This document shows positions 1 through 5,665 of a stretch of 64,000 nucleotides of DNA, in pieces. The notes under the pieces were generated by a model. The model was given only the letters and a program-made list of their open reading frames with translations. It had not been told where the DNA came from and ran no database searches. Each line of letters begins with the position of its first letter. Position 1 is the first letter of the stretch. Where the stretch lies: NCBI GenBank assembly GCA_963793425.1, contig CAWCAG010000005.1:1312001-1376000 (forward strand). Reading direction: 5' to 3'. The position numbers and the translations under genes were made by a program. This DNA is from an uncultured cyanobacterium. Its GTDB lineage: Bacteria > Cyanobacteriota > Cyanobacteriia > Cyanobacteriales > CAWCAG01.

Positions 1-4
1 AACT

Positions 5-607
5 TTACTGGTCAATTAACTCGGAGTTAAACTCGTTGAAGGAACGTCTTTTTAATTGTATTGACTCAGAACGAGGCAGGAGATCAAAGACCTCCCGGAA
101 AACACTATCAATGTCTTCAAACTTAGCTTGTCCAGTTTGGTTAAAGACAATCTCACGATTTTGATTTAGTAAGACAGTCTGAGGAATAGCCCCTTGGTAG
201 TAATAACCTACTTCTTCAGGATTGTATTCATCCTTGATAGGAATAGAATCAACATTAATGGGTATAAAACTGGCTACTTTGCCATAAAATCGCTGTAGCT
301 GGGAGATAACCTCAGAAAATCTTTTGCAATCGCTGCTATCTTCTACATAAAAAACTAACAGAGCAACTTTGTCTCTTTGGAAAGATTCCATCAAGGTCAT
401 GCGGGGCGGAACTAAAGAACCATTTCCAGCATAAAGAGCAAAAATATTCCCATCAAACCTATCATCTTCAAGCCCTGCCGTTGCTGAGGGGGTTCCTAAC
501 ACTAAGAAACTAATTAGCCCAACCAGGAGCGTTATTGAGCAAAAGCGCAAGGAAATTTTTCTTGAATGGAAGTTATTTAGCCAGTAGCGCAACCGCGAAA
601 AAATCAT
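5..607 (-). CDS. Thioredoxin-fold thylakoid protein (photosystem I accumulation factor-like)
   Basis: N-terminal TM/signal segment; conserved cyanobacterial DDRFDGNIFALYAGNGSLVPPR; degenerate SxxC (SSDCK) thioredoxin-like motif. Confidence 0.65.
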   Translation of the reverse strand: MIFSRLRYWLNNFHSRKISLRFCSITLLVGLISFLVLGTPSATAGLEDDRFDGNIFALYAGNGSLVPPRMTLMESFQRDKVALLVFYVEDSSDCKRFSEVISQLQRFYGKVASFIPINVDSIPIKDEYNPEEVGYYYQGAIPQTVLLNQNREIVFNQTGQAKFEDIDSVFREVFDLLPRSESIQLKRRSFNEFNSELIDQ

Positions 608-691
608 AAAGTTCTATTTACCAATTAAATCAGCTATTATTAATAGTACAGCTAGGGGCTGTGGCTCAGTTGGATAGAGCAAGCGCCTCCT

Positions 692-1542
692 GAACAATCG
701 GGCCTCTTGGGGGAAACCCTAAGTAGTGAATGCGGTCAAATTCAAGGAAGCCTAAGTCTGGTCAAACAGAGAGGGTAATCTTGAGCCAAGCTTATAATTT
801 GTCGATTCGGCAAGTTATTAAGAAGGTGCAGAGACTGGTTGAATGAGAGCTAAAAATGATGGACTATAATGTCTCATCAAAAGTAGAGCAAAGAGGCATT
901 CTGACCGGGATGTTATTAGGTGCAAGTAGGAGGAATAAACAAAATTTCTACCTCCAACACCTGAATTTGCCAGAGGAATATGTTTTGTTTAAAAAGCAAC
1001 TCCTTGAACAAATCATTCGCAAGCCAGTTAGTCTTCGGGAAGAGAAAAGTAGTAAAGGCGAACCCTTGATACGTTTAGAACCAAAGTTGATTCCTTTAAC
1101 TAGGGTTTTGGTTAAGAGGCTTTATCAAGGAACAACACCTATAATTACAAGTAAGTTCCTGCGTTTTTTAACCCCCCCAGGTATAGCAATTTGGTTTATG
1201 GATAAAGGTTCTAAATCTTTTAAGAAGAAGAACGGCAAGATCCATAGCCTAGAAGTTAACTTCAATACCAATATCTGCCAAGCAGAAAATGAATTGATAG
1301 TAGCTTATTTTGCTGAAGTTTGGGGTTTTAAGTGGGGATTAAGCAAAAGTGGAAAGGCTTACCGTTTAAGGATGGGAACGAAAGAAGGTAAAAGATTTTT
1401 TGATTTTCTTCGTCCCTATATCCATCCCGCTATGCTCTACAAAATAGAAACCTCTTGTCAACATAACGGCCGCCACCTAAAAGAGCTTTTGCTCTGATGG
1501 TGAAGGGATAGTCCAGAGAGTAAGGAAACTTACACAAATCTG
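692..1542 (+). ncRNA. Group I self-splicing intron (IC3-like, bacterial tRNA type), 851 nt
   Basis: 5' exon ends in U and intron ends in G. P1 689-693/698-702 with U691.G700; P2 with GAAA loop 706-723; P3 GCGGTC 732-737 / GGCCGC 1468-1473; P4 TTCAAG/CTTGAG; R element GCAGAGACT 828-836; P8 1474-1502; S element AAGGGATAGTCC 1503-1514; P9 GTAAG-GAAA-CTTAC. Confidence 0.95.
856..1497 (+). CDS. Intron-encoded two-motif LAGLIDADG (LAGLIDADG_2 / I-SceI-like) homing endonuclease or maturase; active sites degenerate
   Basis: Motifs ILTGMLLGAS and LTPPGIAIWFMDKG; C-terminal LRPYIHPAMLYKI typical of the family; very basic protein; lies inside the intron. Confidence 0.85.
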   Translation: MMDYNVSSKVEQRGILTGMLLGASRRNKQNFYLQHLNLPEEYVLFKKQLLEQIIRKPVSLREEKSSKGEPLIRLEPKLIPLTRVLVKRLYQGTTPIITSKFLRFLTPPGIAIWFMDKGSKSFKKKNGKIHSLEVNFNTNICQAENELIVAYFAEVWGFKWGLSKSGKAYRLRMGTKEGKRFFDFLRPYIHPAMLYKIETSCQHNGRHLKELLL

Positions 1543-1591
1543 AAGCGCTAGGTCGCCGGTTCAAATCCGGCCAGTCCCGTTTTTTCAGTGT

Positions 1592-1798
1592 ATGGCTTGC
1601 CGTTTTGTTGATGATCAATTTAGCCACTTGAGTTTAATTTGGTATAAGCAATGGTTGGTTGCCTTTTCTCTGGCAACATTAGCTTTTTTCATGGTGTCTG
1701 CATTTAGCCAACCAGCACAAGCTTTATCATTAGTTGGTAATGACAGCACCGAACAAGTAGAAGAAACTGTTGAGAATGCTAAAGATGCTATTGATTAA
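1592..1798 (+). CDS. Short hypothetical secreted protein or gene remnant
   Basis: Hydrophobic signal-like stretch ending QPAQA, followed by a short acidic tail; start uncertain. Confidence 0.3.
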   Translation: MACRFVDDQFSHLSLIWYKQWLVAFSLATLAFFMVSAFSQPAQALSLVGNDSTEQVEETVENAKDAID

Positions 1799-1901
1799 TT
1801 AACTAGTACTTCGGTTGTATGAGTTTTTGAATTAGGTTTATTTCACTGTCGTGATTGCCTAATTCAATTTTTTTGCTGCGATCGCTTTTTTATTTCAGGC
1901 T

Positions 1902-3881
1902 TCAGTTAACTTTCAACACTCTAGTAGCATTGAGGATTGCTAAAAGCGCTACCCCTACATCAGCAAATACTGCTTCCCACAGAGTTGCTACCCCAATTGC
2001 TCCTAGCAAAATAAATAGTGCCTTAACTGCCATTGCCAGGATGATGTTTTGCCAAACAATAGAATGAGTTTTACGAGCTATACCTATTGCCTCTGCTACC
2101 TTAGAAGGAGCATCATTCATTAGCACCACATCGGCAGTTTCTATAGCTGCATCAGAACCTAACGCTCCCATTGCTATCCCGACATCTGCTCTCGCAATTA
2201 CCGGTGCATCGTTGATACCATCACCCACGAAAGCTACTTTGCTTTTTTTGTCAGACTGATGAAGATACTGCTCGATTGCTTCTACCTTGTCTTCTGGAAG
2301 CAATTGCGCTTTGTAGGTGTCTAGACCAAGCTTACTGGCAACCCTTCGAGCCACAACTTGGTTATCTCCCGTCAGCATTACAGTTTCGGTGACTCCTGCT
2401 TTTTTCAATCGGGCGATCGCATCTTGAGCATCTTCCTTAATCCTGTCGGAGATTAAGATATAGCCAGCATATTTTCTATCTATTGCTAGATGAACTACCG
2501 TACCTTCAACATTACAAGTATCATGTTCTATCTTTTCTCTGTGTAAGAGGCGATCGTTCCCTGCCAATACTGACATCCCTCTGACTTTAGCACTAATACC
2601 GTGTCCGGGAATTTCTTTATGATCAGCGACATCAGAATCGGTAATAGTAATGTCAGCCGCAGCAATTTGATTGCCGTAAGCTTCAACAATGGATCGCGCC
2701 ACAGGATGATTGGATTGAGATTCGGCGATCGCAGCAATAGTAAGTATTTCTTTTTTCCTATAGCCGTTATAAGCAGTTACTTGAGTAACTTGGAATACAC
2801 CTTCAGTTAACGTTCCAGTTTTATCAAAAATTACCGTTTTAACATTGGTCAAGGCATCGAGAAAAGTCGAACCCTTAACTAAAATACCTCTTTTGGCTGC
2901 ACCACCAACTCCACCAAAGTAACCCAAAGGAATACTAATTACTAATCCGCAGGGACAGGATATAACTAATAATACCAACCCTCGATAAAACCATTGTTCG
3001 CTAGTTGCACCAGGAATGAATAAGGGGGGTAAGATAGCAACTGCTAGAGAGAGAAAAACTACAACGGGAGTGTAGTAACGGGCAAAACGAGTAATAAATT
3101 TCTCTGTTGGAGCTTTTTTACTGCTGGCATTTTCTACCAAGTCCAAAATTTTAGCAATGGAAGATTCGGCAAATATTTTGGTGACTCGAACTTTTAAACT
3201 ACCTGTTTGGTTAATCGCACCTGCTAAGATTGTTTCTCCTTCTCTTACAGTTTGAGGTACGGATTCACCCGTAAGTGCCGAAGTATCAATCTGGGAAGTA
3301 CCTGATAGTATCTCACCATCTAAAGGAACTTTCTCCCCTGGTTTGATCACAATCCTATCTCCAACTTCTACTTTTTCAGGGTTAACTTCTCTTATCACTC
3401 CATCAATAACTAGACTTGCCTTGTCAGGACGTATTTCTAATAGTGACTTAATCGAACGACGTGAGCGCCCCACCGCAAAACCCTGAAACAGTTCTCCAAT
3501 CTGAAAAAACAGCATTACTGCTACCCCTTCGGGTAATTCATGAATTGCGATCGCCCCTAAGGTTGCAATAGTCATCAAAAAGTTCTCATTAAATATTAGA
3601 CCCCGCAAAATATTAGACCCCGCACTGGTTAATACACTCCAACCGCTTATGAAGTAGGCGGGAATTAAAACTGCGTATTCTGCGATCGCACCAGGAGTAT
3701 TATGCAAAGGCTGGTTAAAGATTAATCCAATCAGAAATAGAGCGATCGCAATACTAAGAGGTATTAGTTCTCGACTTAAATTAAACTCACCATGCTCATG
3801 GCTATGATTATGATCCTGATGATGATTTTCATCGGTAGAACAGCAACTAGTGGAATGTTTACCTGACATAATCCAAAACAT
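1902..3881 (-). CDS. ziaA: Zn/Cd-transporting P1B-type ATPase (ZiaA/CadA-like)
   Basis: His/Cys-rich N-terminus, TGES, CPC, DKTGTLT, HP and GDGINDAP motifs; start may be ATG 3869. Confidence 0.9.
   Translation of the reverse strand: MFWIMSGKHSTSCCSTDENHHQDHNHSHEHGEFNLSRELIPLSIAIALFLIGLIFNQPLHNTPGAIAEYAVLIPAYFISGWSVLTSAGSNILRGLIFNENFLMTIATLGAIAIHELPEGVAVMLFFQIGELFQGFAVGRSRRSIKSLLEIRPDKASLVIDGVIREVNPEKVEVGDRIVIKPGEKVPLDGEILSGTSQIDTSALTGESVPQTVREGETILAGAINQTGSLKVRVTKIFAESSIAKILDLVENASSKKAPTEKFITRFARYYTPVVVFLSLAVAILPPLFIPGATSEQWFYRGLVLLVISCPCGLVISIPLGYFGGVGGAAKRGILVKGSTFLDALTNVKTVIFDKTGTLTEGVFQVTQVTAYNGYRKKEILTIAAIAESQSNHPVARSIVEAYGNQIAAADITITDSDVADHKEIPGHGISAKVRGMSVLAGNDRLLHREKIEHDTCNVEGTVVHLAIDRKYAGYILISDRIKEDAQDAIARLKKAGVTETVMLTGDNQVVARRVASKLGLDTYKAQLLPEDKVEAIEQYLHQSDKKSKVAFVGDGINDAPVIARADVGIAMGALGSDAAIETADVVLMNDAPSKVAEAIGIARKTHSIVWQNIILAMAVKALFILLGAIGVATLWEAVFADVGVALLAILNATRVLKVN
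2413..2420. repeat. HIP1 octamer (example; recurrent throughout the window)
   Basis: GCGATCGC occurs many times in and between genes, typical of cyanobacteria. Confidence 0.9.
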
Positions 3882-3907
3882 TTAAACAATTTTTATAAAT
3901 GAACAAT

Positions 3908-3921
3908 TGAATAGTTATTCA
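3908..3921. promoter_or_regulatory. SmtB/ZiaR-type operator inverted repeat
   Basis: TGAATAGTTATTCA palindrome resembling the smt operator core TGAACAGTTATTCA, located between the repressor and the ATPase start. Confidence 0.75.
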
Positions 3922-3967
3922 GATAATATCTCCAAAAAAGTTATTTAGCAATAGATAACAGGAAGAA

Positions 3968-4363
3968 TTAAACTTCGTCTAAGTGTTCGGCTACTTCACG
4001 ATAAAGGTTGGCAATATGCGCGTCTGCCAAGCTGTAATAAACGTTACGCCCCTCACGGCGATGTTTCACTAAGCGGAGGTTTCTGAGCAAACGTAACTGA
4101 TGTGAAACGGCTGATTCACTCATTCTAACTACGGCAGCCAAGTCACAGACACAAAGTTCGGCTTTAGCCAGGGCAGAAAGGAGTTTAAGCCGATGGGGGG
4201 CAGCCATAGCACCAAAAAACTGAGCCATCTGCTGTGCTTTCTCTGTAGTTATGATTTCCGACTGCACTTGACGTACTTGCTCTAAATGAACTAAAGGTGA
4301 ATCACAAGTAAGTATGTCCGATGCTAGAGAGCCTTGTTTTTTTGATTTGTTAACTTTGCTCAT
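3968..4363 (-). CDS. ziaR: ArsR/SmtB-family metal-sensing repressor (ZiaR-like)
   Basis: ELCVCDLA, SESAVSHQLRLLR HTH, alpha5 ligands DAH...EHLDE; directly upstream of the P1B ATPase. Confidence 0.88.
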   Translation of the reverse strand: MSKVNKSKKQGSLASDILTCDSPLVHLEQVRQVQSEIITTEKAQQMAQFFGAMAAPHRLKLLSALAKAELCVCDLAAVVRMSESAVSHQLRLLRNLRLVKHRREGRNVYYSLADAHIANLYREVAEHLDEV

Positions 4364-4672
4364 TTTTCACATTCCAACCCCTACAAGTATAGTTACTTCA
4401 GATAACAGTAGGGTCATTTTTTAGTTGACTTCTTTGATAGTGATACTCATTATATATCTGCATCTCTTTTCAAATGAACAAATATGGCCGTAGGATTACT
4501 CAGAGAAACTATCAGACAAAAATCAACTCCAAACTTTTTTATAACGAGTAAATATTGTGATGTATTTACTCAGCTAAGCAACAAAACAATAAATGTAACA
4601 AATTGACATATAGAATTAAGTAACAAAAAGAAACTCAATCAAACTTAGCTTGGTATGATAGCTGAAAAATAA

Positions 4673-5665
<993 letters not shown>

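Follow-up and report, generated by a model that had tools for sequence, protein, structure and literature searches.

A conserved LAGLIDADG protein lacking both catalytic aspartates, encoded in the group I intron of a cyanobacterial tRNA-Arg(CCU) gene

In a 64,000-nucleotide (nt) stretch of the genome of an uncultured member of the Cyanobacteriales (contig CAWCAG010000005.1, positions 1,312,001 to 1,376,000; hereafter the window, whose own numbering is used throughout), a transfer RNA (tRNA) gene, tRNA-Arg(CCU), is interrupted by a group I intron, and this intron in turn carries an open reading frame (ORF) for a protein of the LAGLIDADG family. The first-pass annotation, made from the letters of the window, had proposed this arrangement, and we find its anatomical claims to be right. 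What it missed is that both catalytic aspartates (Asp) have been replaced in the ORF product. It is the repeated loss of this pair of residues, in a protein that is under strong purifying selection, that we regard as the new part of the finding; the intron itself is ordinary.

Two programs, ARAGORN with long introns allowed and the Rfam group I model, both matched at the locus. ARAGORN placed a tRNA-Arg(cct) gene at 655..1579, interrupted directly behind the anticodon, between tRNA positions 36 and 37, by an intron of 851 nt; joining the exons (655-691 and 1543-1579) in silico gave a complete 74-nt cloverleaf with the anticodon CCT. Rfam model RF00028 (Intron_gpI) matched positions 679-1006 at 53.2 bits (gathering score 50, E 7e-12), and in a scan of the whole 5.28-Mb genome the same place scored 47.7 bits, slightly below the cut-off; no other group I intron was found by this RF00028 scan of the genome. 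The score is lowered because the ORF divides the ribozyme core, and since the ORF parts P7 from P3' the 3' half of the RF00028 alignment is forced, the true 3' core lying about 600 nt downstream. ARAGORN called the same split gene in all 20 loci that were fetched from relatives, and it is therefore no chance pattern. In addition, the 5' exon sequence is identical throughout 69 related genes, and G is the final base in 68 of the 68 distinct tRNA-Arg introns listed, the exon ending in ...CCT.

The split gene appears to be the only one of its kind in the cell: the 50 uninterrupted tRNAs found in the genome by ARAGORN include two tRNA-Arg(tct) and no second tRNA-Arg(cct). By the wobble rules a tRNA-Arg(tct) could decode AGG, less efficiently; because the sole tRNA-Arg(CCU) gene is split, the intron must be removed if the cell is to have a dedicated AGG reader. 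Default ARAGORN, which lacks the long-intron option, reported zero tRNAs in positions 1-5000 of the window, and for annotation this means that the one tRNA-Arg(CCU) gene of this genome escapes tRNA finders in their default mode. A scan for promoters and terminators gave nothing above shuffled sequences. We also observed that tRNA-Leu(UAA), the classic home of cyanobacterial group I introns, is uninterrupted in this genome (G000:C1:117811-117894).

The ORF lies at 856..1497, its conserved start perhaps being the second ATG, at 859, rather than the one at 856. Its product matches Pfam LAGLIDADG_2 (PF03161) with E 3e-29 and a score of 102.5 bits, the cut-off being 25, in keeping with the family assigned in the first-pass annotation, and its gene is present as a single copy in the genome. 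The AlphaFold2 model of the protein has a mean predicted local distance difference test (pLDDT) score of 91 and is well ordered to about residue 197, while residues 202-213 fall below 50. The codons for these last residues run across the 3' strand of a hairpin situated between P7 and P3', then across P3' and P8 up to the stop codon; because the ordered domain ends ahead of the codons shared with the ribozyme core, the folded domain fits the loop of that hairpin exactly. The closest solved relatives are the endonucleases I-WcaI (PDB 6x1j) and I-SceI (PDB 1r7m), which were matched by Foldseek with template-modelling (TM) scores of 0.75 and 0.74, respectively, and the window protein shares with them the Pfam family and the fold, a monomer that contains a pair of LAGLIDADG motifs. 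Unlike them, it has both catalytic Asp replaced, at 20-22% overall identity, and its host gene is a bacterial tRNA gene. Further Foldseek matches include the bI3 maturase at rank 9 and structures of WhiA, a regulator descended from LAGLIDADG enzymes, at ranks 13, 18, 19 and 23.

The two motifs of the window protein read GMLLG-A-S and WFMD-K-GS. In a profile alignment A23 aligns with the Asp of 'GLILGD' in I-SceI, and K117 with the second Asp of 'WFMDDG'; these I-SceI residues we take to be the catalytic D44 and D145. The acidic metal-binding residue found at the end of a LAGLIDADG motif is missing from both motifs. As judged from the alignment, the ORF product should not be filed as an active endonuclease.

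This loss is not peculiar to the window. In a set of 121 proteins, consisting of the window protein and 120 database hits, an acidic residue (D or E) is present at both sites in 34, at one site in 19 and at neither in 68; in a second set, the 59 unique intron ORFs taken from genomes, the corresponding numbers are 12, 15 and 32, and in both sets all members with two acidic residues have Asp at both sites (D+D), a Coleofasciculus protein being one example. The second site in the 121 proteins is D in 43, K in 38 and R in 20, Lys and Arg being the commonest replacements, and the neighboring D116 is invariant (121/121). On a tree of the ORFs, built by a quick method with the two catalytic sites masked, the D+D state is basal, and between 'D+D' and 'lost' the state must have switched four times or more, three of the switches being forced by strongly supported branches; a clade of 33 rows (support 85) lacks both residues throughout. 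At the individual catalytic sites, 17 and 14 changes were counted on the tree, and once lost the two sites rank among the most variable positions.

The ORFs have nevertheless remained intact, with frames of at least 206 amino acids (aa) in 58 of the 59, and they evolve under constraint. The ratio of nonsynonymous to synonymous substitution (dN/dS) was estimated pairwise by the Nei-Gojobori method (NG86) over window residues 10-198, which excludes the overlap with the ribozyme. Its median is 0.161 for the 132 pairs in which neither ORF is D+D (0.05 < dS < 1.5), 0.165 for the 48 pairs in which both are, and 0.155 for the 157 mixed pairs. In clades that have a single derived state in all members, where the loss is older than the divergence of the members, dN/dS is 0.11-0.17 (W/K, five genomes), 0.09-0.30 (Q/R, nine genomes) and, between the window and its same-genus relative, 0.175; the synonymous excess there is highly significant in Fisher tests (p 6e-10 to 1e-24). 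Selection has released precisely the two catalytic positions and has retained the rest of the protein. True decay does occur in this ORF family: the sole degenerate ORF of the 59, from an Oscillatoriaceae metagenome-assembled genome (MAG; L009, identical to L077), has a longest frame of 169 aa and a terminal branch of 0.79, as compared to a median of 0.049.

The ribozyme that surrounds the ORF was reconstructed by aligning ten ORF-less relatives of the split gene and computing a consensus fold with RNAalifold, after which the elements were mapped onto the window (Table 1). P7, which is pseudoknotted with P3, was added by hand. The consensus recovers the tRNA arms, P1-P6 including P5a, P8, P9 and an extra 9-bp hairpin between P7 and P3', with compensatory changes in 22 of the 91 predicted pairs, P3 and the extra hairpin both contributing to these. 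The splice-site pair of P1 is U.G in all ten ORF-less relatives (columns 38:48), and the window's own P2, P4-P5a, P6, P8 and P9 are stable when folded in isolation. The P1 U.G pair, P2-P9 and the terminal G of the intron are all present, in agreement with the first-pass annotation, which had noted that no core pairing was missing. In its general layout the intron may fit subgroup IC3; the covarying P7-P3' hairpin is not known as a feature of the Azoarcus or Anabaena introns.

Table 1. Elements of the split tRNA-Arg(CCU) gene, its intron and the ORF in window coordinates
Element	Position	Strand	Evidence
5' exon, ends with anticodon CCT	655..691	+	ARAGORN with introns
Group I intron, 851 nt, omega-G at 1542	692..1542	+	Rfam, ARAGORN, relatives
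P1: exon CCT + intron GA (689-693) x TCGGG (698-702), U.G wobble at 5' splice site	689..702	+	RNAalifold, mapping
P2 hairpin, GGAAAC loop	704..726	+	RNAalifold; -11.3 kcal/mol, z -2.67
P3 5' strand, partner 1468-1473	732..737	+	Covariation
P4-P5-P5a domain	741..784	+	RNAalifold, own fold
P6, extended hairpin	785..827	+	-12.5 kcal/mol, z -3.55
P7 5' strand (guanosine-binding helix), partner 1510-1514	828..838	+	5/5 pairs canonical, all classes
P7.1-like hairpin 5' strand, partner 1451-1462, Shine-Dalgarno-like GAGAG	839..849	+	RNAalifold, motif search
LAGLIDADG_2 ORF, 213 aa	856..1497	+	Pfam, profile alignment, AlphaFold2, Foldseek
P7.1-like hairpin 3' strand, within final ORF codons	1451..1462	+	Motif search
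P3 3' strand (P3')	1468..1473	+	RNAalifold, mapping
P8 (1482-1486 x 1491-1495) and basal extension; ORF stop TGA 1495-1497	1474..1502	+	RNAalifold, own fold
P7 3' strand	1510..1514	+	Mapping
P9 hairpin, GGAAAC loop, then intron 3' end	1515..1542	+	RNAalifold, own fold
3' exon, CCA not encoded	1543..1579	+	ARAGORN

Pairing was compared among ten ORF-less introns, 11 whose protein has both acidic residues, 15 with one and 32 with none. P1, P3, P4, P7, the base of P8 and P9 have 98-100% canonical pairs in all four classes. P2, P5a, P6 and the P7.1-like hairpin are less well paired in the ORF-bearing introns, which reflects length differences and an alignment fitted to the ORF-less sequences and says nothing for or against peripheral decay. 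In every ORF-bearing intron scored in a motif search (which left 21 introns and three spurious matches unscored), the ORF lies within the loop of the P7-P3' hairpin. The insert in that loop varies little in size; it has 621 nt in most cases and stays within 616-627 nt in all but one, where it reaches 656. The stem itself covaries, for instance as GTTGTAG/CTACAAC, GTTTGAG/CTCAAAC and GTTGCTG/CAGCAAC.

Several further observations concern this hairpin and the ribozyme around it. The Shine-Dalgarno-like GAGAG (GGAG in many relatives) lies 6 nt ahead of the ATG (window 839-855), and the hairpin strand that contains it pairs with a CCUCU/CCUCC strand 600 nt downstream (1451-1462). From this pairing we would predict that folding of the ribozyme masks the ribosome-binding site, so that translation and splicing may compete. 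Some of the ORF-less introns (e.g., L011:1501-1839) share the GAGAG...CCTCCTACAAC hairpin ends with ORF-bearing ones, and may be the product of a clean deletion of the ORF as opposed to a state in which it was never gained. In the introns of a Laspinema/Phormidium/Oscillatoria group (L035-L047, L056) P7 ends at intron position 217-220, as compared to 130-146 in most others; their ribozyme is therefore longer in its 5' half, by an insertion of about 80 nt. In an ORF-less intron of 306 nt (L019:1206-1587) the loop of P8 is enlarged by about 45 inserted nt.

The combination of a cyanobacterial host, a tRNA gene and a LAGLIDADG ORF had been called rare in the first-pass annotation, and here the distribution says otherwise. 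Among 61 genomes of the same order, this one included, the intron is present at the site in 32; it contains the ORF in 10 of these, and in the other 22 it has no ORF and is about 254-306 nt long (counts read from the match table, 12 of the ORF-less cases being called from paired matches alone). A further 23 genomes gave exon-sized or unrelated matches only, and in five of these the exons are contiguous, so that the gene is intronless there; the remaining six gave no match. ORF-bearing, ORF-less and intronless alleles are thus all found among relatives. A strict pattern for the 5' junction, which as an exact pattern gives a lower bound, occurs in at least 37 of 301 genomes of the phylum, namely the window genome, 35 of 99 others of the order and 1 of 28 from other orders of the class; it was absent from the 173 genomes of other classes of the phylum, and a reversed control pattern had zero matches in the phylum genomes.

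The protein was traced in the same way. A protein collection yielded 157 relatives at E <= 0.001, and in a collection of species genomes 65 loci encode a relative of the window ORF. Six of the loci from named species are identical to loci of the same-order genome set, by which the organism of the window is confirmed as a cyanobacterium of that order. Of these loci, 54 have the arrangement seen in the window, a tRNA-Arg(cct) intron, nearly all in named filamentous cyanobacteria; one lies in a tRNA-Leu(taa) intron of an acidobacterium, four are cut by contig ends, and six are distant relatives with 23-28% identity at which no tRNA was detected. The host genera of the tRNA-Arg loci include Coleofasciculus, Symploca, Caldora, Oscillatoria, Laspinema, Phormidium and Microcoleus, as well as Spirulina, Lusitaniella, Desmonostoc, Hassallia, Halomicronema, Jaaginema and Aerosakkonema. 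The distant homologs (L080, L081, L083-L086) come from MAGs of Gammaproteobacteria and Patescibacteria, with no tRNA detected nearby, and may sit in ribosomal RNA (rRNA) introns. Joints labeled 'skips 851' and 'skips 801' in four DNA metagenome runs were considered as alleles of this locus and rejected because their contig flanks differ; they stem from other organisms, whose tRNA-Arg genes have no intron or one without an ORF. Such intronless and ORF-less tRNA-Arg(CCU) genes in the same metagenomes (X1-X4; matched to window 655-691 and 1543-1583) mean that potential homing targets co-occur in the community.

Nor does the locus bear out the horizontal acquisition that the first-pass annotation took the combination to imply. 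The element is present in a same-genus genome with 91% nucleotide identity, its upstream flank is conserved there (tblastx 90.6% over 254 residues), and the window ORF pairs with that of its congener on the ORF tree with a Shimodaira-Hasegawa-like approximate likelihood ratio test (SH-aLRT) value of 99; no synteny with a same-family genome (G002) was detected within the 1.5-kb flanks. The ORFs group by taxon, with clades for Coleofasciculaceae (15 rows, 93), Laspinema/Phormidium (99), Spirulina-like forms (100) and Oscillatoria (92). A recent horizontal acquisition in this genome is not supported; in this order of cyanobacteria the intron is commonplace and has long been resident.

Movement has occurred elsewhere in the history of the family. 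In a Pyrinomonadaceae MAG (Acidobacteriota; L073:1315-2323) a group I intron of 921 nt interrupts a tRNA-Leu(UAA) gene at U34|A35, the classical site. The ORF of this intron, placed just after P7 as in the window, is 55% identical to the window ORF and keeps both catalytic Asp. At the DNA level the likeness of the L073 locus to the window, 66% over 598 nt, is confined to the ORF, which must therefore at some point have crossed between different tRNA introns and between two phyla.

The tRNA-Arg(CCU) group I intron was first described in Agrobacterium and other alpha-proteobacteria. Among cyanobacteria, the tRNA-fMet group I intron of Synechocystis PCC 6803 encodes I-Ssp6803I, an endonuclease of the PD-(D/E)XK type; it resembles the window intron in being a cyanobacterial tRNA group I intron with a protein gene, but differs in the tRNA, in the insertion site and in not being of the LAGLIDADG family. 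As an insertion type, the intron studied here has the features of Arg.5Ug: the same tRNA, insertion right after the anticodon, a U-1 wobble in P1 and an omega-G. Arg.5Ug is one of four classical types of bacterial tRNA intron, and the frequency of split tRNA genes is highest in Cyanobacteria, at 0.69 per genome (Williams 2020, bioRxiv 10.1101/2020.01.27.920355); cyanobacterial Arg.5Ug introns may already be listed there. By description, the window intron is set apart from the classical Arg.5Ug introns by its cyanobacterial host, its 213-aa ORF and the P7-P3' hairpin that holds this ORF. The suggestion that the combination was possibly undescribed holds in one part: the insertion type is classical, and for the ORF, a full-text literature search, with older subscription papers mostly outside its reach, found no paper in which the intron of a cyanobacterial tRNA-Arg(CCU) gene carries a LAGLIDADG gene. 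LAGLIDADG endonucleases are recorded from group I introns of cyanobacterial 23S rRNA (PMC1995217), and these introns share with the window intron the union of cyanobacterium, group I intron and LAGLIDADG gene; their host gene is an rRNA gene, whereas that of the window intron is a tRNA gene. Mohanta 2017 (PMC5733544) reports, under the name 'group I introns', insertions of 22-49 nt that lie in tRNA-Arg(ACG), tRNA-Gly and tRNA-Lys; they have no relation to the element studied here and are too short for group I ribozymes. A eustigmatophyte preprint (PMC13060386) proved to have no bearing on the matter.

How then might the retention of the protein be understood? The reading that we favor, to which we would assign a probability of roughly 0.45, is that of a long-resident Arg.5Ug intron whose protein, having lost both Asp, would be cleavage-inactive and would be kept by selection, most likely as a maturase. 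According to this reading the intron has long been resident in a filamentous cyanobacterium, in its only gene for tRNA-Arg(CCU), where the intact core would most likely self-splice, with the exons held by the anticodon stem; the LAGLIDADG gene, of the I-SceI type, would have entered the loop of the P7-P3' hairpin through a single ancestral invasion. With A23 and K117 at the sites of the two metal-binding Asp, a loss of DNA cutting and of homing is to be expected from the known role of these residues. As purifying selection persists strongly after the catalytic loss, the protein would have to serve another role. By analogy, this would most likely be to bind its own intron RNA and to aid its folding across the insertion of about 620 nt, i.e., to act as a maturase, a role that is plausible because such an insertion between P7 and P3' should hinder folding.

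There is precedent for such a conversion: homing endonucleases that gained maturase activity and then lost cleavage have been described (PMC3384342). Known LAGLIDADG maturases include yeast bI3 (PDB 2ab5), I-AniI and the protein of a Thermotoga neapolitana 23S intron (PMC3384342, PMC3984707). Like these, the window protein is intron-encoded and has been retained after its endonuclease function was weakened or lost; unlike them, its intron is a small one in a bacterial tRNA gene, ORF-less relatives exist without any protein, and its maturase role is putative. The protein is also, as a maturase would be, encoded within the intron it would serve and selected independently of nuclease function.

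Several points weigh against this reading. Dependence of the ribozyme on the protein, which would mark a maturase, is not what we found: the core is intact, protein-free relatives exist, and the catalytic core helices are equally well paired with and without an ORF (98-100%). In five of five genomes with an ORF-less intron no homolog of the protein occurs anywhere in the genome, and the ribozyme therefore needs no protein in general; the single copy of the gene in the window genome likewise speaks against an obligatory role. Residual metal binding might be possible, given that the invariant D116 adjoins the lost Asp site. Lastly, dN/dS shows that the protein matters, not what it does, and strong support is found on only 13 of the 56 inner branches of the ORF tree.

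Among the alternatives the one that survives best, unlikely as we judge it to be, is that the disarmed protein has been kept for a role outside splicing, for instance as a DNA-binding regulator like WhiA or through some other binding to the tRNA-Arg gene or its RNA. Such a role would fit the purifying selection that continues without the catalytic residues, the ORF-less introns that cope without any homolog (0/5) and the WhiA structures among the fold matches. However, all close homologs found lie inside a tRNA intron or are cut by a contig end (54 tRNA-Arg, one tRNA-Leu and four cut, of the 65); a host regulator might be expected to become free-standing, and not one of them has done so. The beta-saddle is moreover the more variable in the group that has lost both residues (entropy 1.39 vs 1.02 in the D+D group; helices 0.87 vs 0.80), a comparison that is exploratory since group size and diversity differ.

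It is less probable that the ORF is a functionless remnant from a late phase of the homing cycle and is intact in appearance only. The ORFs of the order have been lost or never gained in 22 of the 32 intron-bearing genomes, one relative (L009) has been cut to 169 aa on its branch of 0.79, and both catalytic residues are gone from the window protein, all of which a remnant would lead one to expect; yet dN/dS stays near 0.16, the same as among D+D copies and also within clades that shared the loss beforehand, 58 of 59 frames are intact, and free drift is limited to the two catalytic sites. Just as improbable is an active mobile intron, whose protein would cut intronless tRNA-Arg(CCU) genes via other residues and so drive homing: the fold and D116 are preserved, 12 of 59 relatives keep both Asp and are probably active, and the 55%-identical acidobacterial ORF attests movement between introns and phyla, but A23 and K117 occupy the catalytic positions of I-SceI, these positions vary freely in the family once lost, and with an ORF tree that follows taxa and a locus syntenic within the genus no recent spread is seen.

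Returning to the maturase, we would entertain, more tentatively than for the window protein itself, a wider possibility: the cyanobacterial tRNA-Arg(CCU) intron proteins may constitute a natural series that contains every stage of the conversion of an endonuclease to a maturase. Its basal members, including the acidobacterial tRNA-Leu one, would have kept both Asp and at least three to four lineages would have lost them, with Lys or Arg in most cases taking over the second site and no slackening of selection on the protein.

To our knowledge, most work on the taming of selfish homing endonucleases into host splicing factors concerns a small number of organellar examples. In the present family three states, active-looking, disarmed but conserved, and ORF-less, are found side by side in dozens of bacterial genomes, in one small ribozyme and one tRNA gene, and their coexistence makes the transition from endonuclease to splicing factor directly testable. 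The D+D copies are, in addition, candidate new meganucleases aimed at the anticodon stem-loop of a tRNA. If the series from endonuclease to maturase is real, bacterial tRNA introns would have in it their first family of maturases, in a phylum that has genetically tractable members.

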